Positions 42 to 51,999 of a DNA stretch of 64,000 bases are shown here, piece by piece. This DNA is from Cladosporium halotolerans. Taxonomy: Eukaryota. The translations under genes were made by a program, and so were the position numbers. How positions within the stretch are numbered: the first letter of the stretch is position 1; each line of letters opens with the position of its first letter. The DNA lies in assembly GCF_011745625.1 (NCBI RefSeq), contig NW_027191499.1, positions 1 through 64,000 on the forward strand, in the 5' to 3' direction. The notes beneath the pieces are model-generated. The model was not told the DNA's origin, did no database searches, and worked only from the letters and a program-made list of their open reading frames with translations.

Positions 42-944
42 TTGATTGATTACCTGATTGATTATCTGATTGAGAAAATCAAGATTCAAGATCTATGCTC
101 AGAGTACGAGAAGGAGGCCGTCGACTTCGAGCTGATGGTGCTGTCCAAGCGAGTCACATTCCATGTCGGAACCAGATACTTGCGGCCCAAATGGCTCGGC
201 TCGGCCACACCTAAGGCTCCTGTGCCAGGCCAGTGGGGCATGGGGAGCATGATATCGATCCATCAGAGGCTCCACGACGAAGCCAAACCCACCCGCGGCG
301 GCGACCGTGGTGAACTCGCTCTGCTGCGGCTCCGCCTCGTCGACACGCTGCTGCACGAGATGGCACACGCCGCTGTTCACCACGTCGTGGGCTTTAACTC
401 GACCGAAGACTTTTTCGAAGAGTCCCTTGTCGCCGAGGCGGGCTTCGAGTACACGCAGCGCATGTTTGGCTTGCACCCGGCGATTTTCCCGGACCACCTG
501 GACAGGTCCTACTGGTCGCAGTGGCAGACGCGGAACTTTCTGAGCCCCGAGGCGTATCCGCTGGCGTGGAAATGTCGGGATGCGCGCAAGTTGCCGGAGC
601 AAACCAAAGGTATCGAAATGGATCCCAATCATGCGATCATGCTGCTGGACGACGGCTTTTGGCGGTGCGCGGGCGACCCGAGTTTTAAGGTCATTCCTCA
701 GGATTTGCTCCGCCCGGAGCTTCGTCACATATTCGACACCACGCCGAAGACTTTCCGCGAGTGGTGTCTTCGCGAGATGGGCATCTCACCAAAGGCACCG
801 GACGCTGACGAAGAAATCGTGCGACCGATGGCTACGCGTGAGCCGATGGTTTGCTACAGGCAACCGGCGGCGTATACCCATAGGGATCTGGAGTTCGACG
901 AAGCAATCCCGGACAACAGTGGAAAGACAGCGGTGAAGACATGA
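42..944 (+). CDS. Hypothetical protein with HExxH zinc-metallopeptidase-like motif (5' end uncertain, near window edge)
   Basis: 300-codon ORF containing DTLLHEMAHAA followed by a downstream EAGFE. The ORF-track start is not ATG and lies in a short tandem repeat, so the true start is probably elsewhere. Confidence 0.55.
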   Translation: MIDYLIDYLIEKIKIQDLCSEYEKEAVDFELMVLSKRVTFHVGTRYLRPKWLGSATPKAPVPGQWGMGSMISIHQRLHDEAKPTRGGDRGELALLRLRLVDTLLHEMAHAAVHHVVGFNSTEDFFEESLVAEAGFEYTQRMFGLHPAIFPDHLDRSYWSQWQTRNFLSPEAYPLAWKCRDARKLPEQTKGIEMDPNHAIMLLDDGFWRCAGDPSFKVIPQDLLRPELRHIFDTTPKTFREWCLREMGISPKAPDADEEIVRPMATREPMVCYRQPAAYTHRDLEFDEAIPDNSGKTAVKT

Positions 945-22789: not shown

Positions 22790-24690
22790 CTATCTTAATT
22801 GCTTGATGTCATCCGCGATTTTTTCCGCAAGCATATACACTGTCGCCTGTGGATGACCAGGCGGCAGAAACGGGAATGCAGACGCATCCACAACTCTCAG
22901 ACCATGCACGCCGTATACTCGGGCTTGTGTATCGACGACAGCCATCGGGTCATCTTGTGCACCCATCTTGCACGTTGCCGCCGCGTGGTAGAGGGTGAAT
23001 GCCGCCTGGCGCATGTAGTCGATGATCTGCGCATCGGTCGTCACGTTCGGTCCAGGCAAGTACTCTTCTCCGATGGTGACGTTGATGTTGCTCCAGAGTT
23101 CACGGACTCGCTTGAACCCGGCTACAGCGATATCGACATCTTCGGGCGCGGTAAGCCAATTGGGGTTAATTGTAGGCTGGACCGATGCGTCGGGCGACGA
23201 GATCGTGATGTTGCCCCTGGAGAATGGAGAAACGACGACAACAGAGACCGCAGCATAGTTAAAGCCATCCTCCGGATCCGCTGTGCGGTAGTTGCGATTA
23301 AAACCTGAGGCACCGTTCTGAGTAAGATATTCGACTTGCGGCCAGTCTTCGGGATACGCTTCGAGAGCGTCTAATGTTGCGTTTGTGAGCAGGGCAGGTT
23401 TATTGTCGGATATTCTTTCGAAGCCGATGAGACCCGGAGGCCCTGCAAGCGGACCTGTGCCATTCGCGAGGTACGACATAGCAGCTTCGGCCGCAGCCTC
23501 CGGGTTGTTGAGCGATTCGGAAGATGTGGGTACGCTCACGCGGTTCTGGACACCAAAGAAAGGCTGATCCTGCAGATTCTGGCCTACGCCGGGTAGATCT
23601 GCAACCACTGGAATGCCGTGCTGATTCAGAATCGCACGAGGACCAACGCCAGAAACCATGAGCAGCTGGGGCGACTGGAACGTGCCAGCAGAAAGGATGA
23701 CTTCTTTCGTGGCGCTCAGGGTGAAGTTCTTGTTACTGGACTGCACCAAAACGCCATCAGCCGTCTGGTTACTCGTGAACATTATCTGTCGTGCCAAAGC
23801 CTGGGTGTAGACTTTGATGGAGGTCTTCTCCGTCGCATAGTCGAGGAAGCTAGTCTGAGACGTTGAACGATGCTGAGTGGTCGGATCCACAGTGGCAGGA
23901 TTCCAAAAGAACCCATCAAGCGAGCCGCTTTCAAATCCGGACGGATTCTTACGGACACCGATAGCGTGGAATGCCTTTGCCGACCATGTCGATATCGCGT
24001 CCGCCCAGTAGGGCCACGAGAGCTGCAATGGCTTGTGGTATTCATCCTGGTAGTCTGTGTTCTCCGGTTGGTAACCGACGGAAGCGTTTGCCCTTCGAAT
24101 CTCGGTGTTTGGAAGTGTTAAGTTCACGGACCGCTCAAAATAAGGCTGCAGGTTTTGGAGGGTATAGCTGTTGTCGCCGACCTCCTCGGCCCATCGTTGA
24201 TAACTCCCATTCGTGCCTCGGTGATAAGCCATGTAATTTCTCGCAGAGGACCCTCCAAGTGTTTTGCCCCGAGCATAACTCGTCGTTCGCCCATCAAGGC
24301 CAGCTTGTGGTACCGTTTGGAAACCCCAATCGATTAAAGGCTGAGTGTCGCTGGGATCGGCGCCTACGAATTGGGTTGTGCACAAGCCTGGGATGACGCT
24401 GCGGAGAGATCAGCGAACCAATTCATCCGGAAAGAAAACAATCCTGCTCATGTCGCATACCTTCCATTTCCGTTCTCGATCTGGTAGAAGCCGCCGGCTT
24501 CAACAACCGCAACGGACACGTCCTGATCCTCGGCAAGCCGTGCGGCAATAGTTAAGCCTGCTGTTCCACCACCAATGATGACATAGTCATAGGTGGCATT
24601 GACTCCAGGTACGCCGAATGAATTGCCGTAAAGTCCAGATCCCAAAGCCAAAGCTGGAGACGCCAGAAGCAGAGATCGTTTGAAGTGCAT
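22790..24690 (-). CDS. Secreted GMC oxidoreductase (AA3), 1 intron
   Basis: Signal peptide, [43 protein letters not shown] and GLRVVDAS...PPGHPQ; intron at about 24405-24460. Confidence 0.92.
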
Positions 24691-25807: not shown

Positions 25808-27666
25808 CTAGACCTCAGCCACATGCGCCACCTCAAGCTTCTCAGAACCACTGATATCAGCATTTTCGTGTTCTTTCCCAGTTACTTGCTGGTTGAATAT
25901 CGCCATACGCTTCGAAAACTCCTTCTCCTCGTTCCAGACGAACATGCTCTTGCTCGCAAAGAGGTAATCAATCTGCTCGAGCGTTCGTCCACTTGTTTCG
26001 GGAAGGAAGCAATACACCAGAGGCACGTAGGCGAACATGGCACTATGTATGTCAGCTATCAATTATCATTCTCTAGCCAGGAATATCTCCGTCGCGACAG
26101 GGTTGGATATGTTCTGGGAAGATCCGCGTTTACTTACGCTCCAAATACATAGAAAGTCTGGGATCACACCATCAGCCGTTGCTATCTCCAGATGAAGGGC
26201 ACGGTTAACTCACCTTTTCATCGATTCCCGCAAACATGACCGGCACAAGCAGAGAGCCACCTCCATAGCCGACCGCCCAGCCAGCAACACCAAATGCGTT
26301 GCCCTTCGCCCGCAGAAATGTTGGGAAAATCTCGGTAGGATAGATGAAGGGAATCATGAGCCACGATGAGCTGAAGATCAAGAGGTAGAAAAAGACCATT
26401 GCCGAAGCTGCGGTGCCGTACTCAAAAGCCTTATCGGGGTTGTCAACGGCTCCACGAAATAATCCACCGATGATGAATAGTACAATGCTGGAAGAAATCG
26501 CACCCCAGTATAGAGTTCGACGGCGGCCGACTTTGTCGATGGTGAAGGCTGCGATCGCGGTGCCCAGAATGCCGACGAGCATGAGGAGAGCGGAGAGCCA
26601 ATTCGACTTGAGATCGTCGTATCCAGCAGTTCGATAGATGGTGCCAGAGCTGCACAACAGTTAGTATCTGTCTATTGACTGTGATTTGGGCCGTACATAC
26701 TAAATGACGACGGCTGCAATACCTGTGCCGTACTGCATCAAGACTTGCAACCAAAATGCGAGCTGAATCCGCCTTCCGAGGTGAATATCGCCTGAACCGA
26801 TGCCGAAAAACATCTTGAAGTAGTTTGTATCGCCAACACCTTGCTCTTCTTGAACAACGGTGATGATCTCCGAGTACTCTCGTTGTGCGTCAGGATGGTT
26901 CGGGTCGTCATTTCCGCGGAGCTTCGCAATGATCTCAAACGCCTCGTCGCATTTGCCATCCTTAACGAGCCAGCGCGGCGACTCCGGGATCAGCAAGCTC
27001 ATTATCGCGAGGGCAATGATCGGCAGGGCCTGGATGGCGAAGTCGAAGCGCCATCGGAATTGACCACCGCCGGCTTCCGTGAAGGACGTCCCGAAGCCGA
27101 CCCAGGCGGCGACAGAGATGCCGGAGAAGTTGGCGAGGAAGGTCAGGGCGATTGTCTTGCCGCGATGGGCCGCTGGAGAGAGTTCGGCTGTCCACATGGG
27201 GGCGATGACGATGATAAAGGCGACGCCGATGCCGGCAATGAAGCGGGCAACGAGCATATGGGCCAGGTTTATGGCGGAGGATTGTAGGATAACACCAATT
27301 ATGCACCAAAAGCACGCCATCCAGATGCCCTTGATTCTCCCGTGGTTGTCAGAGAAGCTTCCCGCCCAGAAGGCTCCGAACAGAGCTCCACTGCAGTGCG
27401 TTAGCCATCTCTGTATCCAGCTGAGGCATTTCAGGGCAAACGTACACGTAGTAGATCGCGGCTATTCCACCCTGGAGAGAGGGTTTGGTGACGTTGTTGT
27501 CCTCGTCCGTGTAGCCCATGCGGCGACCGTACTCTGGGGCTACAGTCACGACACCCATGATGCCCTGACTGATGCCTTCAAAAGAGATGGCAACGGCAGC
27601 GGCGGCCGTAATGAGCTTCAGCAGCCGGTCGCCACGGACAAATTTCCAGTAATTTCGATGAAACAT
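25808..27666 (-). CDS. MFS sugar porter family transporter, multi-exon
   Basis: Motifs PMWTAELSP..RG, PESPRWL, IDKVGRR, YPTEIFPT.LRAKG and PETSGRTLEQID. Confidence 0.93.
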
Positions 27667-31370: not shown

Positions 31371-32929
31371 ATGACATTCGAATTGAGTCTATCCAACGGC
31401 ACTCACAGCCCGCCTGATGGGCACCGACTATTCAACGGACAAGGGCAAAAAAACGGCATGATAGCTAATGGCATTGCTGACTTGAGGCAACCAGCCTCAA
31501 AGCCTTTGGACTGCATAATCTTAGGCATGAACAGCGGCACAGCTATGGATGGCATAGATTGTGCCCTAGTGCGGTATCGACAAGAGTCTCCTGAAAAGCC
31601 ATTGCACATGGAGCTTCTGAAAGTAAGATTTCGCCTTCTGGTCTATGGCTCAACAGGCAAGTGCTGATATTGAACAGTATGACGAGATGCCCGTTCCTCA
31701 GTGGATCAAGAAACCGGTTCTCACGATGCTCCGTGAGACACAAACCACACCATCACTGATGTCACAGCTGAACGTCAAGCTCGGCATCATGTTCGGCGAA
31801 GCAGTCATGCAGTTTTGCGCAAAGCATGATGTTGCACCGAGGGACATTGACCTGATTGGGTCACATGGACAGACCATTTGGCTGCTGTCTATGCCTGAAG
31901 TGGGTGAAACTCGATCCGCCTTTTGCTTGGGGGAAGGGACTGTCATCAGCGCTATCACGGGTATCACAACGGTGACGGACTTCAGGATGGCGGAACAGGC
32001 GGTTGGCAGGCAAGGAGCGCCGTTGGTGGCACTGATTGACGGACTACTCCTCCGCCACCCTACCAAGTGGAGGATCTGCCAGAACATTGGCGGCATTGCA
32101 AACTTATGCGTCATTCCTCCGGACAGCGAAGGTGGTTTAGATGCCATGGTCGATTGGTACGTTAAAGTCTATGCCTGGCATTATGTATAGAGACTGACCG
32201 AGATCATGCAGGGATTGCGGCCCCGGCAACATGTTCATCGACAACGCGATGCGATATTTCACCGACGGCACTATGGAATACGACAAGGACGGTGAATGGA
32301 GTGCCCGCGGCACCGTCCACCAAGCCATCGTCGATAAGTTCCTCGACACCCACAAGTACTGCAACCACAAGCCTCCCAAGACGACCGGCCGCGAGACTTT
32401 TGGCGACAATGAGGGGCAAGCCATCATTGACGACTGCCTCGCTGCCGGCTGCAACAAATACGACACGCTGGCTACAATCACGCGCATTACGGCCCAGAAT
32501 ATGGTCAAGCAGTATCGCCAGTTCCTCCCGTCTTTCAACATCGACGTCGACAAAATCAGCGAGATTTACATGTGCGGGGGCGGGGCACGTAACCCCAGCA
32601 TTATCAGATATCTCAAGGAGCAGCTGCCTCTAGCCAAAATCCGAGCTCTCGATGAGACGGGTGTGCCGTCGGACGCAAAGGAAGCGGTGTCTTTTGCGCA
32701 GCAGGGCCTGGAAGCTGTGCTGGGAAGGGCCGCGCTAGTGCCGATCAACAGTGATAGCCTGATGCCGAATACGATTTCGGGCAAGATTGCGCCGGGCTTG
32801 AGGTGGAGGGAGGTAATGAGGGATGCAATGGCCTTTGGGGAGGGTAGGACGAGTCTGCCGACTGTGAAGGAGATGGTTGTGGATAAGCCGTACAACGGGT
32901 GGAAAGTCATGCAAGACGGGTTTGAGTAA
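31371..32929 (+). CDS. Levoglucosan kinase / anhydro-N-acetylmuramic acid kinase (AnmK) family 1,6-anhydrosugar kinase, 2 introns
   Basis: [61 protein letters not shown] and KEA; introns 31623-31677 and 32157-32211. Confidence 0.93.
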
Positions 32930-34591: not shown

Positions 34592-35624
34592 TCAAGCACT
34601 AGGCGCAAGCGCAATATCATACTCCAAATCCAACTTAGCCTCAGGATCGTCCTTACGCGGCAGGAATGTCACACACAACTCGTCTTTGACAGCGAATACG
34701 CTGTCGTCAGCCAGATACTTGCAACCTTTGTCAAATATTTGAGTCGTCAGGTGCTTGTAGCCTTTGTAGCCAACCACCAAGTGGATGTGAGCCGGACGGA
34801 ATGGATGGCGATCCATTAGCTTCAGCAATTGTCCGGCCGGTCCGTCGTCGGGTACCTTTGAGACATGAATCTTCCGACGAAAAACGTGAGGGTTCAAGGA
34901 TGTACTTACAGGATATGGTGTAGGTCGTAGACAGTACAAAGAGTATCTGCCTTCATCGTCTGTTACGTATTTGCCGCGGAGGTTCAGGTCGCGCTGGTTG
35001 GGGTCCTGCTGTTCGTATAGACCTACGGTGGATTTAGCGGATGCTACACCTGAGACACATTGAGACACTACCATTTGTGGATGCTTGCCAAATGTCAATC
35101 GTAGCGCCGACTATAGGTTTGCCGGTCTTTACATCTGTGACTTTGCCATGCATGAAGGCCACTTCCGCATCTTTGGGGGTGTCGAAGCTGATCGTCGTGC
35201 CGTTTTGTCGCACGGGATGATCATTCCGCCAGAACGGACCAAGGATTGCTGAGGATGTCAAGCCGCTTGAGCTCCTCGTGGCAGCGGAAAACGTGATGTC
35301 GTCTACTAGTGTGTGGAACGGTCAGCTACGTTGTCCATTGCTGCAATGATCGTGGGTAACGTATGATTCAATGCCGATAACGTCGCACATCAGCTGCCCC
35401 TCATTACGCTTGTCGTCGCTCATTTGACCAGCCCAGTTGATGGCGTTCACTCCCATCATCCACTCATCCGTCGTGAGCTGGGTCTCGAGGGCAAACTCAT
35501 GCAAGTGTCTGATCAACGAAGACATGATCTCCCGAAATCGCGCGGGAGTCTTGGGACCCATAGCATCCACGACACTTTGAGTGAACTCTTTGCCCAGAAG
35601 CCCTGTGTCTCCTTGTGAACCCAT
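34592..35624 (-). CDS. Intradiol ring-cleavage dioxygenase, catechol 1,2-dioxygenase type, 3 introns (first appears AT-AC)
   Basis: RHLHEF, MSDDKRNEGQL.CDVIG.ESLVD, ILGPFW, DIWQASTNGLYEQQD, PTPYPVP and RHPFRPAHIH (Tyr/His iron ligands). Confidence 0.93.
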
Positions 35625-36334: not shown

Positions 36335-37406
<1,072 letters not shown>

Positions 37407-38066
37407 ATGTAGAGGCTGAGAAAGAAGTCTGTTCCTTGCGTGCGCGCTTATTGAGGGTCGTCTTGGTTCTCACTCTAAAGCACACTCACGCAGTGCGAGG
37501 GGAGGGTGACTGTATGCTCATCGTGTGTAGATACTAAGGTAGTCGTTCCTTTCCGCCATATCGCGGCGTTCGGTGTGTGCATTTGGGAGGCGCAGCATGC
37601 GCCAGCCCTGCATCTGTGACTTTTCAGTCCTTCTGACGACCATTTTTCCAGTTGCCACAACTCTTCCGCCTCTATCTCGCCTGTGCATCTCATCCAACGT
37701 GTGTCTCATGACCAGCTCTTCCTGGTTCATGCGCTGTCCTAGCTAGCTACGTGGCAAATACTTCCAGAAGCGATGACAGCCATGGTTGAAAACCTGGGGG
37801 AAGTCAATGGCGTCGATGAGATTGATGAAAATTCAATCGGCAACGTGTCTTCTGTGGAGGCCCTCCTCGAGCGCTGGGTCCAAGACGGTGGCAAAGTGGT
37901 TCTGAAGAGCACAGAGTAGGCCTCTTCACGGGTTTATGGAGTCTTTGGAGTAACCGGATATATTTACTGCAAAGTATGTATCGAAAGGGCCAGACTGCGC
38001 ACCGGAAAACTTCGGCAATACTTCCGATCATGGGCTTACTGAGGACCTTACTCAGAGAGAGCAAAT

Positions 38067-39808
38067 TCAAACCTTCTTGATGCTGTCATCATGTGTAGCC
38101 TTCCATTCCTCCACCAAGCCAGCGTAGTCTCGGGGAAGGCAAGGCTCAGTGAGTTCAGAAAACCAGCTCTTCTTCCGCTTGTTGTTGAGCCCCATGTCTC
38201 GCAAGAGCATATCGATATACGGAACACCCTCGAAGACAAAGTCGGGCAGCGCAGCACCATAGCCGCATGGGTAACGCCACTTGCCCCACTGTGTGTGCAG
38301 CATGATCTCCTGAGTGATCTCGGCTTTCGTGCTGGGGAGACGGTCAAGCCTGTTGGAGAGGTACGCGGCGGTCCAGTGGCCTTGCACAGTGGCGCAGGAA
38401 GCGGTGGAAACGGAGGAGACTGCGCCAACCCAGGCGATGTTTCGGGAGAATGCGTAGCCAGATGGGACAATGAAGCGGTAGAGGCGGAGAGGGTCGGAGG
38501 TCTTCGGTGCAAAGCGCAACTCGGGTTGCTTCTCGAGGCGAGGGAACATGTCGAGGACCTCGCGGTCCGCTTTTGCGTTGAGTTTCATCTTTTCGGATTG
38601 TGAGACGTCCAGGCCGAACTCATGGGGACCAAGGCCCTGGAATTTGATAGGCGACTCTTTCTTCCAGCCGGTGGAGCAAACGACAACGTCGGCATGCAGT
38701 CTAGTACCATCGGCGAGGATGACAGTGTTCTTCTCCATGTGGTCGATTTGGCCGATGTGTACTCGAATCTTCCCGTTCTTGACAAGATCAAATAGAGGTG
38801 TCTGGTAATTCAAGATGCTGAGGCCGCTGCCAATCCAGAATGCAGAATTCCAAGGCTTGAGCTTCTTCAATTCTGGGTGTGTGTCGTAGCCGTTCGCACT
38901 GATGACATCGGCAGAGAGGATTTTCCAGAACATGTCGACGATGAAGCGCCCAATGAATGTACCGTGAAGAAATCCTCGAATGCCGCCAAAGCCGTCTTCT
39001 TTTCCCCACGGACACGGAGCCATGAAGGTCATCCAACGGATGAGAAGCAATTGATCGAGGCGTTTCTTGAAGGGGGTAACGAAAGCAGGCGCAATCCAAA
39101 CCGGACCATGTCCGTCGTCTCGAATAACAAGGTCGACTGTTGAGCCAGCCTCAACTTGAGCATATGCCACGTCGAATGCGGACTTAGCACCACCAACAAC
39201 GACTGAGTTTTTGACATTTTTCAGCTCTGGTGCTCGGGCACAGAAGTCCTTCGCGTGGAAGAGCGGTGCCCCGAGATTTTCTGAGCCTTTGTAAGTCGGC
39301 ATATTTGGTGTAGACGTCAATCCGGTTGCCAGAATAAGCTTCTTAGCGATGACTGCTCTCTCGCCAGATGGTCCAGTCACGAAAAGCTTCCATGCTTCGC
39401 CCACTGGTTCAATGGTGTCTACTTTAGTGCGAAACTGGATTTTGTTGAAGAAGCCGAAGTGATGTGCAAAGTCCGTCAGGTATTGGTTCAGCACAGTCCC
39501 AGGGATGTGATTGTTTGGTTTGACGCCGTACTTTGACTCCGCCATTGGGAAGTCGGGGAACTCGTAAGTTCCCACCATGTTGTTCGATTTCAAGCCGGGA
39601 TACAGGCGGTTCTTGGTCCATGTTCCACCAGGTGTCTCTGCGCTCTCCAGGACAGCCAGGCTCTGGTCTGGCATTATCTGCGAGGCAGCCTTGGCTGCAG
39701 CCAGGCCGAACCAGCCTGCAAATCCTTCGTCAGCACTGAAACATCCCTGTGAACATCGCAAAGGCTCTCACCGGCACCGACAACGACGACGTCGTACGTT
39801 TCAGCCAT
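38067..39808 (-). CDS. Class B flavin-containing monooxygenase (FMO-like), 1 intron
   Basis: MAETYDVVVVGAG|WFG (intron 39716-39771), GGTW...YPGLKSN, ATGLTS.P, FHAKDF, second Rossmann VVGGAKSAFD and CSTGW. Confidence 0.9.
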
Positions 39809-40827
39809 ATCTGATCACCGAGAAAGCGCTGCAAGCTATGATGAATGTAAGTCTCGAAGGCGCAATTGCTTCGAGTGTACAGGAACATGAGCAGCGGCAC
39901 GGTCTAGCGGGAGTGTACTTATAACATTGCTATCAGCCCAAGCCAGGTCGAAGTAAGTTTGAGCTTAGGCGCGATAACAGCAGTCGCGGAGAACGCGTTG
40001 CCCCTGGACGTCCACTTCCTACCTGACAGTGGGAGGGGGAGGCGGGCCGCCAGTTGACGACCAGGCCAGACACCTACAGACCACGTTATCTTTTGGTCTT
40101 TTTTGCGGCGAGAGAAACGACCCTGGATCTTCCGCAGCGCCCAAGCTCTCGCCAACCCCGTTAATGCAAAGGCCCCCTGCAGGAGCTTGCAGGAGCCGCC
40201 GTGCGGGGACCAGGGTTTGGGCTAATCCGAAAGGCGGTCACGGCGTTCTCGTCCATTGCGGGGTCGATACCACGGCAGGCGAGTGGTACTCAACCGACAG
40301 CCGCGAGTGGGCTATATCCGCGATGATAGCAGGTGTGAGGAGTTCGGCAAGACAGGGTCACCTGATGGCGTTGTCGGCAGGCGAGACGTTGACCGTGCTG
40401 CGGTTCAAAGTAGCGGCGGAGCCTTGCATCGGGAGTGCGGGAATGGGGCCACACAGTAGAGCCCGCGGGATTGGAAGCGAGCAATATTCTCCACCTGATT
40501 CTGGCGGAGCGGGATGGTGACTACGCGCATTCATGTACCATGGCAATAATGGAGTCGGCTCTAAGATTTCTCAGGCGTGCACTGCGAGAAAGTCCGGCTT
40601 CCGGATTTGCTCACGTGATACATCACGTGCCTCTGTGCGTTCAACATGAATTGTACTATGGATGAAGATGTGCATTGCTGTGAGCAAGATGTCTAGTGGC
40701 TGGAAAGATAATAAAGTCGTCTCAAACTGCGAAGGTACTGAGAATATGTCACACGGTCACATTTTACGACTCGATGAAATGGGTTGAAGGCTGGCTTTGA
40801 ACAATTTTGCTCGAATGAGGATTCATA

Positions 40828-41714
40828 CTATTTCTCGTAGCTGATCAATCCATCGATCGTACCCGCATGCAGACCGCCAGTGATCGCAATATCGGCCGCG
40901 GTCGTGTGCATTGATGCATCGCTCAGAAAGTAGATCGCGGCACCAGTCAGATCGTTCTGAGTGCTGAGGCGCTGGTTCGGAGGAGCCAGCCACATCTGTT
41001 CACCCTCCCGTTTGCTTGCTTTAGCTTCTCTGACAGTTCTTGTCATATCAGAATCCACGAAGCCCGGCGAGATTGTGTTGACGCGGATGCCGTGGGGCGC
41101 AAGTTCGACGCCGAGTACTTTGGCGAGCATCATGACGCCGCCCTTGGAGGCATTGTAGGCGGCCATTCGGTAGCCTGGAAGCGCAATGTGTGCTGACTGA
41201 GAAGCGATCAGGAGGATGCTTCCGCGCTTCTTTTGTTTCAGCAGCTCTTTGGCGACCATTTGGGCTGTGAAGAAAGTGCCGCGGACCTGCACGTGGGTCA
41301 GCAGACTGATCTCCGCAATGGACTCATGGCACGTACATTAATCTCCTGGATGCGAGTGAACTCTTCCCACGTTTGGTCCACGAAGGGCTTGTCAATGGCA
41401 ATACCTGCTGCGGGCACACATCCATCGATGGTCTTGAACGTGTCGAGCGTCTTCTGGAACGCGGCTTCCAGGCTTTCTTGCTTGGTGACATCGGTCTGGA
41501 TGTATAGCGTCTTGCTTCCAAATTTGGAACTCAGCGCATCAAATTCCTTCTTGTCAACGGGCTCGTTTTGGATGTCCCAGATGGAGACATTCCCGCCCAT
41601 CTCACATATTGCTCGCGAGATGGTGAAGCCAATACCCTGGGCACCTCCAGTGACGATGTAGTTCCGGCCGGTCAGCTCAAAGGTAGGACGAACATCATGA
41701 AGCGGAGACGACAT
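40828..41714 (-). CDS. Classical short-chain dehydrogenase/reductase, 1 intron
   Basis: TGGAQGIG, catalytic YNASK and IRVNTISPGFVDS; intron at about 41287-41336. Confidence 0.92.
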
Positions 41715-42258
41715 GTTGGTGTTTGAAGCACGCGGTATCTTCGAACCCTGGCAAATGTTCTCTTGCGGTCCCAACGGCGTTTGTGTGGTGCTGCAATGGG
41801 CCGAGATGGACGGGATACTGTTTGTGTTGTATCTCAACTATCGCTCGCCACTCTAGCAAGTTCTCCGCTACTGACCACTTGATCCATGGATGCACGTCCT
41901 CTGTTTGTCCATCTTATCGTGTCGGCCCGCCGCTGTCGATCTGTTCTTTTCGGTATGACCATTCAGACAAGCCCATTGGTCCGCTGTTGCGTGGACCTCA
42001 GCCGAGGTGCTTTGCCCGACCGGCGAGGGGGGCTTCCGATTGCCGCTCCGTCCTTATCGACACATCTTGAAAGTTAATCTGACACGTCCGAACGTTGCCA
42101 CTGAGCGGAAACAGACGGCTACCACCACGGGAAAGGTGATAAACTCATATCATCACAACTGGAAGACAGTAGTCCAGTGTCTCAACAAGGCCTAGGAAAC
42201 TACAATTTCCAAGATTTACAGCCTATTTTTCCGTGCAGTCTGCACATCAGTCACCATC

Positions 42259-43665
42259 ATGCCGTTCGCGGACATTACCAAACCTCCCAAGCCATTGCCT
42301 TCGGCCAAGCTAGAGATCTTGAAGCCTGGCTTGTCTCTACAGCCACCTTTGACAAGGTTGGGATCTGGACCTGGTCTTATCGTCCTAACGACACCGGAGG
42401 CATACGATGAGCAAGCGACACAGCGCGATGATGCACCTACAGCGGTATTGAAGTGGGCAGAGGAGGGATATGCTGTAGTCCAGGTTTCTGCCACTGCAGT
42501 CGAATCGTCAGACATTGAAGCAATCTTTGCTGAGGGCGTGAAAGCACTCGAACAGTGCGACGCTTGTCAACCCAAAGACAAGATTGGGCTTGTCTGTGAG
42601 TCTTAAAAATCCCTCAGCTTCTTTTGCTGTGCTTAATGATTTTGCAGGCCACTCGAAACAGCTTTGGACTGCCGCAGCACCGGCACTCACAAAGTTCCCC
42701 GGCATCGTTGCCAGTGTTCTTTACGTGGATGAGGCAGATGTGGCGGGCACTGGAGACGGTGATGGACCTCTTCTACGGCATGTGGCTGGTCCTACCAAGC
42801 AAAGCTCTCGCAAGCCAGGCGAGAGGACTGGCAAGGACTACTACTATCCCTCGGTCCGGGACCGATGGTTTCTGGCTGGCGACAAAGATTTTGACTATAT
42901 GGCAGACTCTGTGGCTCACACAAGGAACCTCGAATTCTTGAAGCCGAAAATGGGAGGACCGTACTTTGATCTGGAGGAGATCTGGGAGGAGCACACCTAC
43001 TACGAATTCGCAGATCGATCTGTTGAGCACACCATGAGCACCATGGTACAAGAACCATACGTCAATCATGTCCCTACGGTCAGTGAGAAGCTCAGATACG
43101 TATGTGATACAAGCTAACAGAGCTCGATAGCTGACCGGCGGTATCGGGAGAGGCAATCTATCCACCTTCTACCGGGAAAACTTCATTTTCAATAACTCGG
43201 CAGACACATCCCTTGATCTCGTCAGTCGCACGATCGGTATCGATCGCGTCGTTGATGAGTTCATCTTCAAGTTCACTCATGACAGGGAACTTGATTGGCT
43301 GTACGCACCGTGTCCTCACTGAAAGTTCATCGAGTCCTGCTAACGTTCCAAGGCTTCCTGGCGTTCCGCCGACGCATCTTAAAGCAGAGCTTCCTTTCAC
43401 AGCTGTGGTAAACATCAGAGGCGATAGGCTGTACCATGAACACATCTCGTGGGACCAAGGCACTGCTCTGCGCCAACTCGGTCTGCTCCCAGAGTACTTG
43501 CCGTTCCCGCATCCCCTGCCTGAGGGTGTCCTGTCATCCAAAAACGCGAAGGTGGAGTATCGCGTGCCTGTGCTCGGAAAAGAGACGGCAGAGAAGCTGC
43601 GCAATCGTAAGTCGGTGCCTTCGAACGAGATGTTCAAGTACAGTGTGCGAGAGAGGACGGTTTAG
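42259..43665 (+). CDS. Degenerate dienelactone-hydrolase-like plus SnoaL/NTF2-like two-domain protein (usually annotated carboxymethylenebutenolidase; IifA-like), 3 introns
   Basis: C-terminal WEEHTYYEF.DRSVEHTMSTMVQEPYVNHVPT|LTGG.G...SRTIG.DRVVDEF..FTH..ELDW|LLPGVPPT...RGDRLYHEHISWDQ; introns 42596-42647, about 43079-43130 and about 43301-43351. Confidence 0.88.
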
Positions 43666-44053
43666 CTGCAGTTCTGGATAAGATCGCGTAATTGAATGAA
43701 TAGCCATGATTCATAAGCGAGGTATTATCACTTGATCATTTGCCGATATCATCGGCTAGGCGGAGCCTCGCACATACTGTGAGAGGTATCTGCCCAGACG
43801 ATCGCAAGAGAGCAACCAAACTGCACTGACCCTAAACCTACTCCTCCCTCAGCTGACCCGCTTTACCCCGGGTCGCGATAGTCTTAGCGTTGCGGAGATA
43901 TGTCGGAGAGATACCCTGTCCCAGATTTGACTTCGTCCGCTACCGACGCGAGCCATCCACCTTATCTTACCAAACATGTGCGCAACAGAGGGCGTAGAAG
44001 AAACGTCCGTCCTGCTCCCACCATAGACTCGGGCACACAGTGACTCCGGCTTC

Positions 44054-46454
44054 ATGCCGCGACCAAAGGTCCACGAGAGCCAGCGACAAAGAGCGGCGGA
44101 AGCATGCTCTTTCTGTCGAGACACCAAGAAGAAATGCAGCGGGACAGCGCCTTGCACGCAGTGTCAACGACGAGGATTACACGACGAGTGCTTCATAACT
44201 TACCTACCGCGAGGATCTAGATTACGGACTCAACGCGCAGCTGCTGGTGCTGGTCGGCAATCTTGGAACTCGGTCTCTCAGGCTTCCGTCTCCTCCGCAC
44301 AGGATGCTACGAGTGCCGCGCTACTCAGTCCCACTCAATTAAGACCGACTCTTAGCCATGGCCAAAGCGGAAACGCAGCGGATGCTTTCAGACCATTGTC
44401 GCCATCTGAATCTCGAGAAGAAAATGATGACAGCGTTGGTAATGCGGCCCAGGGCTCGGCCCAAACACCAAGGCCATCTGACAAGTCAGTAGGACAGGAC
44501 TCGTCTCTTGCTGCACCAGGCCCACGCATGCTACTGAGCTCGCATGGAGAGAGAGGTATGGGATCGACACATTGTCACATGACGATATTCGGTCAAGACT
44601 AACTCGTGCAGTCTATATCGGAGCTGCCGCTTCAATAGCATTCCTCCAAACAGTAAGACGAGTAGTGGCCGGGCAGATCGGTCCTTCAGATTTCACCAAC
44701 AGTAAAGAGAATGATAGGATGCTCGAGATTGACGCCCCCCAGATTACCGTCGATGCTATGGAGATCACGGCAGAGCAGAAGTTGCAATTTTTGCGGTGTT
44801 ACTTCTCGGTTGTAAGAATCACCGCAGCGGCGGCATACTGATTGAGATACTAACTTTGCGCAGACGGAAGCTTTCATTGACATCTTTGACCCGTCAGACC
44901 TCGAGACCTGCATAAAAACTGGTGGTAGCGGCCCTCTCGTGACTAGCATCGACGACCTCAACGAAGGCGGTACGGACGCCCCTTCCGATTCTCAAATCAG
45001 TCCATTGCGTCGCGCGAGTCTGGATCTTGTCATCGCGATTGGTGCACAATGCACTTCCAAGGAGGATGCTCAGAACATCGGACGGGCTTTCTTCCGTGGC
45101 GCTCAACGTCAGGCATTATCTGAGATGATCCAAGATCCCGACCTGGACATGGTCCGAACTTACCTTCTGATGGCTTTCTATATGCTCGGTGAATGTCGAA
45201 GAAACACGGCTTACATGTATCTGTCGGTGGCTGCCCGCGCTGCGATCGCTCTCGGCTTGCACAGTCCAAGCTCTTATTCCGGCAAGCAGGCGTTGAATGA
45301 AAATGACAAGCTAAGGTCAATGAGATGACACATCCACCTTGCCTTACATACTGACCAAGATTATTAGACTCCGTGTTTGGATGACCTGTCGCGTCGGTGA
45401 CAAACTCGTCAATTCTTTGCTTGGCCGTCCAGCAACCACAATCGGCATCCCCGAGGAGCTCGGAGCCATCTTGAGCACACTCTCATCCGGCCAGGATCAC
45501 GGCTTGAATTGTATGGCTGCTGCATACAATATCGTCTCCATCATCGACGACATCAACACTAAGCTCTACGGCGAGCAGGATGTCAGACCGGAGGTTGTTG
45601 AACAGCTGCTTCAAGCTATCGATGCCTGGAAACGTGACTTCTCACCATCATTGAGCCAAACCGCTCCTTGGACCTCACTAGCTCTTGGCGACATGACCAT
45701 GGAAGCAACAAAAGGCTCCGTGGGGGTCGTCCATGTATCGTGTCTATACTACTTCGCGGTCATGCTTGCCACCCGACCAGTCTTCATCTCGGGCCTCACC
45801 TTGCGAAATGGACGCAAAGACCAACAGTCAGCAATGAGCGAGGCATGCCTCGATGCTGCTATGTTCTTGGCCCAGACCTGCGTCGAAGCACTCGATGCTG
45901 GCCTACTCGAGAGCAATATGTGCATCATGAAGTAAGCAAATTTTCGACGTAATACTTCCTCATCACTAATAAAACCTAGGGCACTCGTATTTGCAGCAGG
46001 TCTAGTCCTCGGGGTCGAAAGTTTCGCCAAACCCACCGTCAACACTGATGTCGAACGTGCATTCGAAAGCGCCAAACAAGTCCTCAAGTTCCTTGCCGCT
46101 CGCAGTCCGCAAGCGAACCACTACCTCGGAATCCTCACATCTCTCTCCAATGCAATCGCAGAGCAGCGCTCCCGGACCGAGCCAAGTCGCGCGAGCCGTT
46201 ATGTCTCCAGGCTCTTCTCCCTCGGGTCATCCGCTTCGAGTGCAGGCACTATTGGCGACCGCCAGAGCGATGACAACAACGTCTGGAGTAGCGCACTTTT
46301 GGACGACTCCGCGCTGGCTGCTGTTGGCGATCTTCCGGAATTAATGGGCACTCCGTCGCAATGGCCGAGCGGCGGAGTGCTGGACCCGGAGCTTTTCATC
46401 GACTGGGAGACTGTTAACATATCTCACTGGGACAACTTTCCTTTTCGAGTATGA
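44054..46454 (+). CDS. Zn(II)2Cys6 transcription factor with Fungal_trans domain, 4 introns
   Basis: ACSFCRDTKKKCSGTAPCTQCQRRGLHDEC; AARAAIALGLH; LLGRP. Confidence 0.92.
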
Positions 46455-46905
46455 TCTAGGGTCTCACGTTGAACATTCTCCCCTGAGGTCAAGATACGAA
46501 TAACGCATTGACTTGGTAACGACGCATGTTTTGGCGGAGGAGCATTCGCTGGAGGAACGAGTTTGAGCCTTTGACGCCGCACTTATAGTGTTATTTTCCC
46601 AAAATTTTATCACAACCCACTTTCGGTCCATTGGTATATCTAGAGACGCAAGACATTAAAACCTTGGATACTGTTCTTCGACCTTCTATTTTCTAGCCAG
46701 GCAAACCAGTTTGGGAAAGTCCTTTCAAGAAACCTTGGGTCTTGACGGCATCTCCATCTTGGATACTGTGTCCTGCTATGACAGGCAATGCACTATCAAG
46801 AATCAAACCTGTATGAGTGCGGCGAGGTCGGATATAGTATTTTGGGACGGAAGTGACAGAAAGAGTTCATTGAGGCTAAGTACATGATGTTGACGAAGGG
46901 TTATC

Positions 46906-48371
46906 TCAGGCACTAGCACCAATCACGATGCCATTCGGCAACTCCAGTCCAATGGGGAGTCCGCAGATGAAGTTCCCAGCATAGCCCGATCCCTTCGCAG
47001 CGGCCAGCTTCTCCTCGATATCACGGTACATGTCATAACTGGGCATATCCGTTAGCAGGGCATCTTGGATTTGGCAAAGGATAATTGTCACTCACGCATT
47101 CATTTCTTCAATCGTCAACACATTCTTTTGGTCCTCGACCTTGTAGAATGGCAGGTCCTTGTTGTTCGAGAAGCCGATGCGCTCGTTGATATTGTAAGCG
47201 GCTTTCGCGGCCGCCGACTGTACCCTGGTGGCACGCGGAAGGCGGACCTTGTTATAGACTGCGAGCGACTGCTCGATGTTGCCGTCAAAGTAGGCTGGGC
47301 TGAACAGGATTCCAATCGCAGCGGCATCTTCGATTGCCATGCAGGCACCTTGGCTTTGGTGGGGCATCATAGGGTGGCCGGCGTCGCCGAGAAGGCAGAC
47401 TCGCTGCTTGTTGAGGTAGGGGTAGGGGTCATGGATCCAAAGCCTCCAAGGCTGGATCTCTTTGCCGATGGCAAGGTGGCCGAAGACCTGTCGGTCAAGC
47501 TCGGGGTAGGGCTTCAGCAACTCTTCGACTGGACGGTCTTCGGCACCCCAGGCTTGGTTTACGTAGTCGCCTTGGTCTCGAGGAAAGAAGCAGTAGTAGG
47601 AGAGGAGTTTGCCACCGTTGCAAGGGGACAGGACGATCTTGTCCCACTTGCCCTCCTGACCTCCCCAGTACTCGAGAGCTTCGTTAAGTGAGTAGTCCAC
47701 AAGGCCGGCTTTGACAGCATCATCGGTCATGACATTGCAGTGGAGGCACTGCTGGTCTGCTGGCCGTCTCGTGGGGTGGATGCCGATAATATTGCGGACT
47801 GCTGAGCCGATGCCATCAGCTCCAATAATCAGGTCATGTTGCGCAATGACGCCGTTCTCGAAAGTGATTGTGTTGGTGTCGAGGTCGATGTCTTTACACT
47901 ACGGGAGGTTGTCAGCTTACTTGTACTTTATATTGATGGTCGAGACGATCGTGGACTTACTCTGTGGTTGACCAACAGCTTAGCAGGCGAGCCTTTGCCT
48001 TCCTCACCCAGTGCGCTGTCCTTCAGCATGGCGTGCATGTACTGTCTGTGGAACATGTTGTAGACATAGCCCCATCGTTGCTCGTAGTCGTCAAGGCTAT
48101 ACTCGCTGATTGGCTCACCCGTCTTCCAGTCGCGGTTGATCAGCCTCTTGAGGACGACAGGGTCACCCTTAGCGACATCGATGTCCCACTCGTGCAGCCA
48201 TCTTGTGCCGTTCGCCGCGCATGAGACTGAGGCACCGACTTCGCCGGCGAAATCTGAGCGTTCGTAGATGGTTACTTCGTGGCCAGCGCGTCGCAGTGCA
48301 ATTGCAACACACATGCCACCAATACCACCGCCGGTCACGCCAACGTTGAGCTTTCTCCAGCCGACGGCCAT
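46906..48371 (-). CDS. Class A FAD-dependent aromatic hydroxylase (salicylate-hydroxylase-like), 2 introns
   Basis: GGGIGG, IGADGIGS (DG motif) and LLGDAGHPMMPHQSQGACMAIEDA (GD motif). Confidence 0.92.
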
Positions 48372-48551
48372 GGCGATCAAGCGTTGTGGATCAATCAGTG
48401 TGAGTAAGTGAAGGTATCGCGATCAACTTGCGTATCGATGAGAGTGCAGTGAATCTTGCGATGGGTATAGAGAAGTTGTGTGTTCAGAATGATGGAGTGC
48501 AGTAGCTGACCGAGACACCGTCTTCGTGGAATGATATAGCACAATTCTATC

Positions 48552-48581
48552 GTCGGAGGAGTGGGACCAGCATCCTCCGAC
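48552..48581. promoter_or_regulatory. 9-bp perfect inverted repeat with CGG half-sites; candidate Zn2Cys6 site
   Basis: GTCGGAGGA-N12-TCCTCCGAC, about 180 bp upstream of the FAD hydroxylase ATG. Confidence 0.4.
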
Positions 48582-50069
48582 ACTCTAAGCCGCTGGCATG
48601 GTCCGATGCCAGTCCTTCCGTCTACATCGCAACGCGTGTGACCTCGAAGAGCTCCTGCGGGTGGCTGTTGCGCCTTCGGATGGGCTGAGATAGCGGATGT
48701 GAGGTGTACGGTCCGCTTCCGACAGTGCGGTGGTGCATACCCGCTCTTCGCGGGTAAGGGCTAGACTCACCTTTACCGAGCAGGTATCACTGATGACGAT
48801 GCTTAGAGCTTCAAGCTTGTGGAAGGTGTCTACCTTTCTCAGCCCAAACCAGCTATTCTGTTCGGGTTTCATCACGAAAGGCAAAGTAGACGTCCCGGTT
48901 CTCGCGCTCGAAACCAGCTGCGTGCCCGACTAGAGACCGGCGGAACAAAGCGATCCGACAGCCAACTCAAAGCTTTGTCGCAGGTAAATTCACGCGAGAG
49001 AGCAGCGTCCTGTCTCTAAATGAGCGTGATGCGAGACGAGCCAGGTACCTAATCAGGACTTTGGGTGTTCTTCTTCCCCTTTGTGAAGCCGCACGACTGA
49101 TGACGTCCTTTTGGTTGAAGATGCGGAGACACTTTCATCCGTGCCGCACCAGTCGTCCGACAATTTGTGGCATGGCTCTCTCTCTGGTGAACATCACGTT
49201 CCCGAATCCTATAGGAGATGATAGCACTTCACTCTCGATATGGATTAGGGAAAGCCTTCTTAAACGCCGAGAACGGTGCCCTTTTCAACATAATTAGTAT
49301 GTTACCGTACTATCGTCCCTCCTAGACTTCCCAAACGCGACTTTCCGGTTGAGAACTCATGGCTACATGAGTAGCTGGCAGGCCACAAATTTCCACATAA
49401 TAAAAGTGGTGACCAGCATGAACTTCTGGCTTTCCTTGGTCACACTCATGGCCATCCAGCTCTCCCCTTGCACGTTCGTCGTGAATTTGGCTAAAGTCCG
49501 TTCCTGACATGAATATGCATACGACTTGGTCTCTGGCATGCGGAGACAACCTTCCGGCAAAAAGATGATGTCCCGATAATGCATTGATCGACAAAATTCT
49601 GCCGCCGCATGCGGGGAACGAAGCATCGATCTTCTGTCTGTTCATCAAAACATAGATGCATCTTCAACTATACTGTGCCCTAACCAATTGCGCACTTAGC
49701 CCTCGAGCCGAACCCTAGAAAGCTTGGAATTCGTTTCTAGACCAGCCTCGACATACCTTTAACAGTGTGCAGATTTGTGAACTCACCCAAAACAATACTT
49801 CCCTGCGGCAGAAAGCGTACCTGTGAGGAGCAGGGCGAAGGTATGACGCTACGATATGCAGCCTTAGTCAAGTGCAACGATTTGAAGACCCTCGACATTA
49901 TCCGGGCCTCCTCCTTCGACCCCTCGCGGGACAACTCCAGCGCTGGCAAAATACGTCTTGTGCAGGGAAGGGTATTTGAAGTGTGATAGCCATGTAAGTG
50001 AGATGGTCTTATCCATCAATCACTGCTTGCAACGCAACAAGCCAATCCTCTGTCGGAAAGAAATCGACA

Positions 50070-51999
50070 ATGCACATAGTCTCAACCCTCCTAGCCTCTC
50101 TGGTCGTCTCCGGTGCTCTAGCGACGCCGCACAGAGGTCGAGGACCGCGAGGCCATGATCTCATTGCCAGAACCAAAGCTGGGACTTTCACTGGCTTTGT
50201 TGATCCAGAAGTACCTGACGTGAGGCAGTGGCTTGGAGTCCCGTACGGAGCGCCACCGGTCGGCAACCAGCGCTTCCTTCCGCCGAAACCCGCAACTCAC
50301 GCCGGTAATATCGAAACTACCGAGTACAAACCCATCTGCATGCAGAATGGTGGTCCAGGTGCTGGTGTCTTCTGGGAGCTAGTTCCGGAATTTCAGAACA
50401 CGGATCCCCAGAGCGAAGACTGCCTGTATCTAAACATCTGGGGCCCTCGGAACACCATTGGCAGACGTCCGAGGCACCAAAAGAAGGTCCCCGTTATCAT
50501 TTGGAGTGAGTGACAAGGTCGGTTCCTGTTAGACTTGACGCTGATTATGTCTAGTCTGTGGTGGTGGCTTCCAAGAGGGCGGAGGTCATGCTCCGTACCA
50601 GGTCCCAGATCATTGGGTGCAGAGGACACAGTCGCATATTGTTGTCACATTCAAGTAGGTGATCATGGCATTGCTCGGTCGAATGGACACTGACTTTTCT
50701 GAAAGCTATCGCTTGAGCGTTTGGGGCTATCCTGGTGCTCGTGCTGCTCCTGTCAATGCAGGCCTGGAGGATATCAGACTTGTGTAAGCGGTCTACGAGT
50801 CTCTATCAGTACCCATGCTTACCGATGTACAGCGTGGAATGGCTGCGTGACAATGTTGAAGCATTCGGGTAGGTCGTTATTCAGATCTGGCCGAGTCGCG
50901 CCTCACAACTAATTCCACAACAGCGGCGATCCAGAGCACATGATCCTCTGGGGCCAATCTGCTGGAGGGAACGCGGCCAATTCATACGGCTATGCGAACC
51001 CAGAAGATCCAATAGTGACCGGCATCGTTGCTCAATCTGGCACCGCTGCTCAGCTCAATGGCCTCAACACGACGGCCTTCTCTGTACTGGCAGAGCAGCT
51101 CGGCTGTGGCGATTTGAGCGCTGAAGATGAGCTGTCCTGCATGCAAGATGCGGACAACAACGAGTTGCACGACATCATTAGGAACGGCGAGGGTGTTCCG
51201 AGGTTCAGTCCTGCTGCGGACAATGTCACGGTTTTTACGAACAATACTGCTCGCTATGAGACCGATCAAGTCGCCAAAGTGGTGCGTGTTTCCCATTCAG
51301 GACACTGTAAAATTGTATGGCAAGTGCTGACCTCGACAGCCGCTGATTGTTGGCAACACCGTCAATGAAGGCGCTGCGTTTGCTTCCTTCGAGTTGAACC
51401 AAACGGTAGCGCCCACGGAAAATGAAACATTGCCCGCTACACAACGTTTTGGTTGCGGCACCGAGACAGAAGCCGAGTGAGTTAAGAACAGGCACTGCCA
51501 CATGTTCTGAGTACTGACCAACCACGAAGTCTCCGAGTGCAACATGGCCTCCCGACGTACCGATATCTCGGCGCTGGAAACTTTTCCAACATCACTCCAC
51601 GATACTGGCTAGGAGCCATGCATAGCTGTTCGTTCATCAGGTCCACTTTTCGCGAGATGAGGTTGCTGACGCTGTCATTGCCAGCTGATATCCCGCTTGT
51701 GTTCGGCACCCACTGGGAATTCCGGGGCAACTCAACAGAGCTTGAATGGCAGACAAGCTTTTCCATGGAAGGTGATTCTTCCTTTCATCAAACTATGATA
51801 ATTCTGCTCGAACTAACGTGGGCTAGGGTTCTGGGTCTCATTTGCGGCAGACTCATTGAAGGCGCCGATGGATGGGCTGGGTCTCACGTGGCCAGAGTAC
51901 AGCTCCGATGAAAACATGGTGCTGTTCGGAAACGAGACGGGTCCCGCGCTGGTCGTTCCGGGAGACTACTATGATCCTGTCTTCCAGTGTGACGAGTGA
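50070..51999 (+). CDS. Secreted type-B carboxylesterase, many introns
   Basis: Signal peptide, LGVPYGAPP.G..RF, SEDCLYLNIW, GGGF, nucleophile GQSAG and GAMH. Confidence 0.9.

Follow-up and report, generated by a model that had tools for sequence, protein, structure and literature searches.

Does a coding intron that begins with AT and ends with AC really interrupt a catabolic dioxygenase gene of Cladosporium halotolerans, and if so, which spliceosome removes it and from what kind of intron did it arise? The gene lies on the minus strand of the window, by which we mean the whole stretch of 64,000 nt that was analysed (contig NW_027191499.1, positions 1 to 64,000), and runs from an ATG at 35624 to a stop codon at 34592. 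The original prediction held that the conserved peptide CDVIGIES-LVDDIT is restored by removal of a 54-nt AT-AC intron, and an open reading frame of 291 amino acids is indeed obtained once this intron and two GT-AG introns are taken out (Table 1). The predicted signals are all present on the minus strand between 35364 and 35311, namely an ATACGT start, a CAC end, and a GCTGAC motif followed by 10 nt, while retention of the intron brings in an in-frame TGA at codon 101 (35324-35322), within this putative branch motif. Enumeration of the nearby GT-AG pairs agrees that they are unfit, giving stops, frameshifts, introns of 24 or 27 nt, or deletions of conserved residues. Two points had been missed: several GC-AG pairs also keep the frame open, and the same peptide results from four different 54-nt registers. 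Because some GC-AG pairs leave an open frame, the sequence alone is not decisive on the ends of intron 1.

The 291-residue product carries the Dioxygenase_N (residues 28-90) and Dioxygenase_C domains of Pfam, which identify it as an intradiol ring-cleavage dioxygenase, and contains the motifs GLYEQ, PYPVP, and RPAHIH, which presumably supply iron ligands. The name catechol dioxygenase is a source label on homologues; for the close relative P0003, the best solved-structure matches are hydroxyquinol dioxygenases (E 2e-59 vs 1e-35). A public protein assigned by its source to C. halotolerans (P0002, 275 amino acids) is identical to the product of the window gene when spliced at a GT-AG pair, 35407-35306, and lacks 16 conserved residues (73-88) within the Dioxygenase_N match, while the same 16-residue gap occurs in P0024 from C. 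inversicolor. P0002 is mis-spliced, by a forced GT-AG model that uses an exonic TAG as a false acceptor, and in practical terms two public Cladosporium proteins are short of these residues.

Table 1. Features of the dioxygenase gene and its divergent neighbour in the window
Feature	Position	Strand	Evidence or remark
Exon 1, intradiol (catechol/hydroxyquinol-type) dioxygenase	35365..35624	-	Ends within Ser codon, phase 2
Intron 1, 54 nt, AT...AC, U2-type	35311..35364	-	RNA contig skip and 13 orthologous AT-AC loci
5′ splice site ATACGT	35359..35364	-	Sequence and comparison of 13 distinct introns
Putative branch motif GCTGAC	35321..35326	-	Presumed branch A 35322; sequence match
3′ splice site CAC	35311..35313	-	Sequence, RNA contig, orthologues
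Candidate helper AG: exonic TAG (YTA of Leu + G of Val), 5 nt past AC	35306..35308	-	
Exon 2	35072..35310	-	ORF and RNA contig
Intron 2, 49 nt, GT-AG	35023..35071	-	ORF and RNA contig
Exon 3	34910..35022	-	ORF and RNA contig
Intron 3, 54 nt, GT-AG	34856..34909	-	ORF and RNA contig
Exon 4, RPAHIH motif and stop	34592..34855	-	ORF, RNA contig, Pfam
Divergent neighbour, Amidohydro_2 family	36341..37406 (approximate)	+	Pfam PF04909, E 4.4e-23

RNA evidence for the removal of intron 1

Four of the 24 runs listed (X1, X19, X20, and X21) were compared with the window. The predicted RNA junction is found in contig 10 of X20, which joins 35309 to 35364, an exact skip of 54 nt. This contig (975 nt, depth 37.6, 0 other letters, 0 mismatches) contains three joints, corresponding to the intron 1 skip and the removal of both GT-AG introns, and is fully spliced. 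It is the one contig of RNA support from the species itself, X21 providing none, and as contigs these data are silent on minor isoforms and expression level. The intron 1 joint rules out the GC-AG and GT-AG alternatives as well as the fourth 54-nt register and, with a slide of 2 nt, is compatible with the TA-CA, AT-AC, and CA-CA registers. The mRNA by itself cannot tell AT-AC from CA-CA, and it is the comparative data that set the register: TA-CA is excluded because the orthologues L015, L021, L042, L066, and L071 begin exon 2 with G, and CA-xA is disfavoured because the same register is fixed by the GT-AG orthologues. The 54-nt AT-AC intron 1 of the dioxygenase gene is confirmed as real.

Spliced products are also found in two other lineages. 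P0004 (291 amino acids) is identical at 291/291 residues to the AT-AC-spliced product of L066/L071, and P0123 (291 amino acids) is likewise identical (291/291) to that of L039, each on a contig of no more than 1.7 kb. As these contigs are short and all three introns are absent, we infer that both proteins derive from transcripts. The contigs of X1 cross the intron unspliced and without gaps, and resemble the DNA of relatives. Read-through of the stop at the TGA was considered and found unneeded, with 9 of the 13 distinct AT-AC introns not being a multiple of 3 in length.

Orthologous introns and the origin of the AT-AC ends

A metagenome scan used a pattern in which GT or AT comes directly after the exon 1 end, blind to other donors and to intron-less genes, and gave 66 loci. 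GT-AG ends, which had been expected of relatives at this position, occur in 52 of the 66; 13 have AT-AC ends, and a single locus has a broken AT...AG form. The proteins of the AT-AC loci are 81-89% identical to that of the window, those of the GT-AG loci 54-75%. Including the window, the distinct AT-AC introns number 13 and measure 54-55 nt, with the donors ATAAGT (11), ATGAGT (1), and ATACGT (1, the window) and the 3′ ends CAC (9), TAC (3), and AAC (1), and no mixed AT-AG or GT-AC form is present among the loci of the AT-AC clade. In gapped alignments with no random baseline, 16-21 of 33 interior positions match those of the window intron, and at four-fold sites the window differs from 8 other lineages by 0.53-0.67. 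Such heavy four-fold divergence, with the ends unchanged, points to intron ends kept by selection. From these comparisons, the AT-AC intron is evidently fixed across a clade and is no oddity of one strain.

In a quick tree (83 rows, midpoint-rooted, 10 duplicates collapsed; 8 short loci omitted, among them the AT-AC loci L015 and L021 and the odd L012), the 9 AT-AC rows fall together behind a branch supported at SH-aLRT 97, nested among GT-AG rows, and this group also takes in proteins of C. inversicolor and Cladosporium fusiforme. A paralog in the same genome, L002, has a GT-AG intron at the same codon. The intron is read through at this position in 7 of 120 homologues, and in all 7 the residue ahead of LVD is R or S, as fits an AG end. 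The nested clade, the paralog, and these R/S read-throughs together indicate that the ancestral state was GT-AG, and the earlier proposal of a derivation from a GT-AG intron at the same position is thus borne out by orthologues, paralog, and tree. The AT-AC state is, as judged from these sequences, a derived one, reached by a double switch from GT-AG to AT-AC.

The locus with AT...AG ends, L012 (match 410-444, minus strand), has an AT-rich stretch of 44 nt at the orthologous position that resembles a damaged GT-AG intron. It was rejected as an evolutionary intermediate, as it falls outside the clade (62%), has no donor consensus, and belongs to a gene that looks broken. Five gene calls from members of the clade, P0007, P0124, P0125, P0012, and P0014, cross the intron 1 junction and enter intron 2, two of them (P0012 and P0125) coming from contigs of 46 kb and 69 kb. 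Calls that cross the junction in this way suggest that the intron may have been lost, once or more.

Splicing signals and the proposed mechanism

The original prediction assigned the AT-AC intron to the major spliceosome. That the intron is spliced and that its signals are of the U2 type both stand, whereas the acting spliceosome is one that we infer from those signals. Across the 13 distinct AT-AC introns, the donor matches the U2 consensus except at +1, and positions +3 to +6 read RAGT in 12 of 13, compared with 22 of 45 distinct GT-AG introns. Over nine lineages, mismatches to AAGT number 2 in intron 1, 14 in intron 2, and 9 in intron 3; a donor that is nearer to consensus than those of introns 2 and 3 is what one would predict were it to compensate for the A at +1. 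Within the AT-AC clade, the weakest donor is that of the window, ATACGT, and the donor GTACGT is present in 3 of the 45 distinct GT-AG orthologues. A putative branch motif, RCTRAY, is present in 13/13 distinct AT-AC introns, with the presumed branch A 10-12 nt before the 3′ end. The case for such close spacing as a speciality of the AT-AC introns is weakened by introns 2 and 3, where it is also 11-12 nt wherever the motif is found. The donor of intron 2 is weak in the window (GTAGTG), and in 7 of 8 further lineages its branch motif is of the CTRAG type, not CTRAC.

Among the spliceosomal RNA genes of the assembly, a U6 gene scores above cut-off and has the ACAGAGA box, and three U1 genes (L073, L074, and L075) are found at E<=2.7e-9, below the gathering score, with a canonical 5′ end. 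A variant U1 adapted to AT donors was set aside, since the 5′ end is unchanged in 3/3 U1 genes; the stems of L075 are clearly divergent, with the 5′ end the same.

The explanation that we hold with high confidence is that intron 1 is a constitutive U2-type (‘type II’) AT-AC intron, which would descend from a GT-AG intron formerly present at this codon through two substitutions, G to A at +1 and G to C at -1, in the ancestor of the Cladosporium gene clade. In the first step, U1 and U6 would read the near-consensus donor, making up for the A at +1, while U2 would read a normal branch site. In the second step, a non-Watson-Crick pair between A(+1) and C(-1) is modelled to replace the G-G pair, and would select the AC over the AG five bases on. 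In the yeast P complex, the last G of the intron pairs with the first, and an A-C pair has been modelled in its place, in a study that also cites AU-AC suppression in yeast (10.1101/212811); a G-to-A change at +1 is rescued, less efficiently, by a G-to-C change at the end (PMC1557818). Once switched, the intron would be trapped, because a single back-mutation breaks the end pair, and it would either persist under selection for accurate splicing or be lost whole. Introns of this kind have been described as trapped since both ends must change together (PMC2831892). As trapping would account for the conservation of the ends, no regulatory role is needed.

A candidate helper AG in exon 2

A possible addition to this mechanism, and one that we put forward tentatively, is that spliceosome assembly relies on U2AF1 bound to the exonic TAG, which lies 5 nt past the acceptor, with the AC upstream of it selected only at step 2. 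U2AF1 would use the exonic TAG because intron 1 lacks its own AG. In 9/9 lineages, the first complete codon after the junction is CTA or TTA (Leu) with a G behind it, while the first base of this codon and both neighbouring third positions vary. An invariant A occurs at 3 of 104 conserved four-fold or Leu sites (near-copies L021, L071, L014, L039, and L045 left out), and at 1 of 20 Leu sites, the junction Leu; however, the argument is post hoc, 8 of the 104 sites are invariant anyway, which puts the empirical chance at ~0.03-0.08, and the lineages are related to one another. A TAG at +5 follows only 2 of 45 distinct GT-AG introns, a contrast with the AT-AC introns that is inflated by the avoidance of TAG to be expected of GT-AG genes here. 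Precedent comes from the non-AG (TG) acceptors described in PMC2374985, which always lie near an AG, and from Sxl and beta-110, which need a downstream AG (PMC2374985). The conservation of the TAG is suggestive, and a helper AG would be compatible with the constitutive U2-type intron proposed above.

More doubtful is the combined scenario, in which a natural and datable switch from GT-AG to AT-AC, within the major spliceosome, took place in a dioxygenase that Cladosporium acquired horizontally from a sordariomycete, with the TAG of the synonymous Leu codon serving as the U2AF1 site at assembly and the A-C pair picking the AC at step 2. If true, it would reveal what defines an AG-less acceptor in vivo, and how the best conserved bases of an intron can pass through a compensatory change of two steps.

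Alternative explanations

The intron has also been proposed as a throttle on the ring-cleavage step, whereby slow or conditional AT-AC splicing would lead, through retention or use of the TAG, to decay of the message, limiting ring cleavage until substrate is present. We consider this unlikely, and the comparison lent the proposal no support. In mutants, the major spliceosome removes AT-AC introns less efficiently (PMC1557818), and decay would hide unspliced forms from contigs, yet the sole RNA contig found is fully spliced. Retention meets a stop and use of the TAG at +5 would shift the frame, but a frame break upon retention is found in 45/45 distinct GT-AG orthologues as well. The long conservation of the AT-AC ends is explained by trapping without any function. 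In P0009, intron 1 has been removed, yet the protein reads into GT-AG intron 3. Finally, the clade members P0012 and P0125, reading straight across the junction, are seemingly intron-less there.

That the intron is a relic of minor (U12) splicing, or an AT-AC intron of ancient date that other lineages have lost, has very little probability. AT-AC ends are typical of U12 introns, and U12-derived or relic origins have been proposed in PMC2831892 and PMC1557818. However, the U12 donor ATATCCTT is matched with 4-5 mismatches out of 8 in 9/9 lineages, the U12 branch TCCTTAAC with 2-4 mismatches at best over the lineages and 4 in the window, and a CCTTAAC branch is absent from the intron 1 clade. 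U12 and U6atac gave 0 matches in the genome, in searches run without a positive control on an assembly that may be incomplete, and minor splicing is reported absent in Ascomycota (PMC10639083, PMC11347168). The AT-AC ends are limited to one nested clade with GT-AG introns around it and in the paralog, and the tree largely refutes a relic.

The terminal bases themselves were checked against DNA run X19, in which one contig (depth 32.7) shows 0 differences over the stretch; this run may be the source of the window. Assembly errors, a template switch by reverse transcriptase, or an unspliced dead gene are most improbable, for although this DNA run may be the assembly's own source and the public annotation has a different junction, both end bases are common to 13 other, independent loci, which independently excludes assembly error, the junction slides by only 2 nt, spliced products exist in two other lineages, and the reading frame and conserved motifs are intact.

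Relation to known AT-AC introns

U2-type AT-AC introns are known from human SCN4A and SCN5A and from human and fly TAF2, and have been hypothesised in fungal xylanase genes (PMC1557818), while AT-AC introns make up ~0.019% of annotated fungal introns (PMC7072748). The animal type II introns share with the Cladosporium intron the AT...AC ends, the U2-type donor, and conservation among orthologues, and the consensus of the Cladosporium clade, ATAAGT, is the type II consensus quoted in PMC5029451. Published explanations take them for relics (PMC1557818) or for U12 introns that were converted (PMC2831892), whereas the Cladosporium tree indicates a new switch that started from a U2 GT-AG intron, in a lineage that has no minor splicing and in the short architecture, 54-55 nt, of a fungal intron. 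The terminal dinucleotides alone are shared with U12-type AT-AC introns.

The AT-AC intron of Schizosaccharomyces pombe Lea1 (SPBC1861.08c) is likewise a coding intron of an ascomycete without a minor spliceosome, previously mis-annotated and confirmed by RNA, but it lies in a splicing-factor gene, the Cladosporium gene being that of a catabolic enzyme (10.1101/226894). Saccharomyces cerevisiae RPL30 provides AT-AC splicing in an ascomycete through a nested intron; there, however, it is a side product of 1-2% with a non-consensus donor (PMC5029451), whereas in Cladosporium it is the route to the full-length protein. Both substitutions have been engineered together into U2 introns of yeast and human, as G1A with terminal G-to-C suppressors (PMC1557818, 10.1101/212811); the Cladosporium intron differs in being natural, fixed in a clade, and equipped with a tightened donor.

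A full-text search, with supplements and subscription papers outside its reach and large intron tables that could list the intron, found no paper on the AT-AC intron of the Cladosporium dioxygenase. The class of intron is already known; what appears to be new is the direction of origin, which departs from published accounts of a relic or of U12 descent, and, as a suggestion only, the exonic TAG five bases downstream, kept in 9/9 lineages as a possible helper AG. With the GT-AG ancestral state all around it in the tree, the intron provides a counter-example, with a direction, to the relic and ex-U12 accounts. In essence, the locus offers an allelic series of one short fungal intron, in AT-AC, GT-AG, and apparently intron-less orthologues, which permits tests of first-last base pairing, of the borrowing of an exonic AG by an AG-less acceptor, and of intron cost or regulation.

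As to other AT-AC introns in the genome, neither ISU1 nor U1-C has an intron in its 5′ part, and the introns in the parts viewed of five GH11 xylanase loci are all GT-AG. One GH11 xylanase locus, L080, has a TGA in an apparent coding exon (reverse strand, ~1280-1300), and may be a pseudogene or contain an unrecognised small intron.

Descent of the gene and its neighbourhood

In a quick tree of 33 rows, the Cladosporium clade nests among proteins with Sordariomycete names (97, 96), nearest to Plectosphaerella, and a grouping with four Mycosphaerellaceae proteins, a hypothesis drawn from an earlier tree, is rejected (p-AU 0.000175). Horizontal transfer into Cladosporium is possible and would fit this tree, as would hidden paralogy.

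The divergent neighbour of the Amidohydro_2 family is likely to be an aromatic-acid decarboxylase that feeds the dioxygenase. The 1-kb flanks of the 66 loci gave no match to it, but flanks of this length are too short to settle whether the synteny is conserved. Beyond it lie genes for an FMO-like flavin monooxygenase (38070-39767, minus strand), an SDR (40831-41837, minus), a Zn2Cys6 regulator (from 44027, plus), a hydroxylase-like FAD_binding_3 protein (47095-48422, minus), and a carboxylesterase (from 49998, plus). Judged by these families, positions ~36341-51400 of the window would be an aromatic-catabolism neighbourhood. On the other side of the dioxygenase gene, an AnmK-family kinase gene (31627-32929, plus strand), for which a levoglucosan-kinase-like use is our guess, lies near genes for a sugar transporter (26703-27461, minus) and a GMC oxidoreductase (22793-24409, minus).
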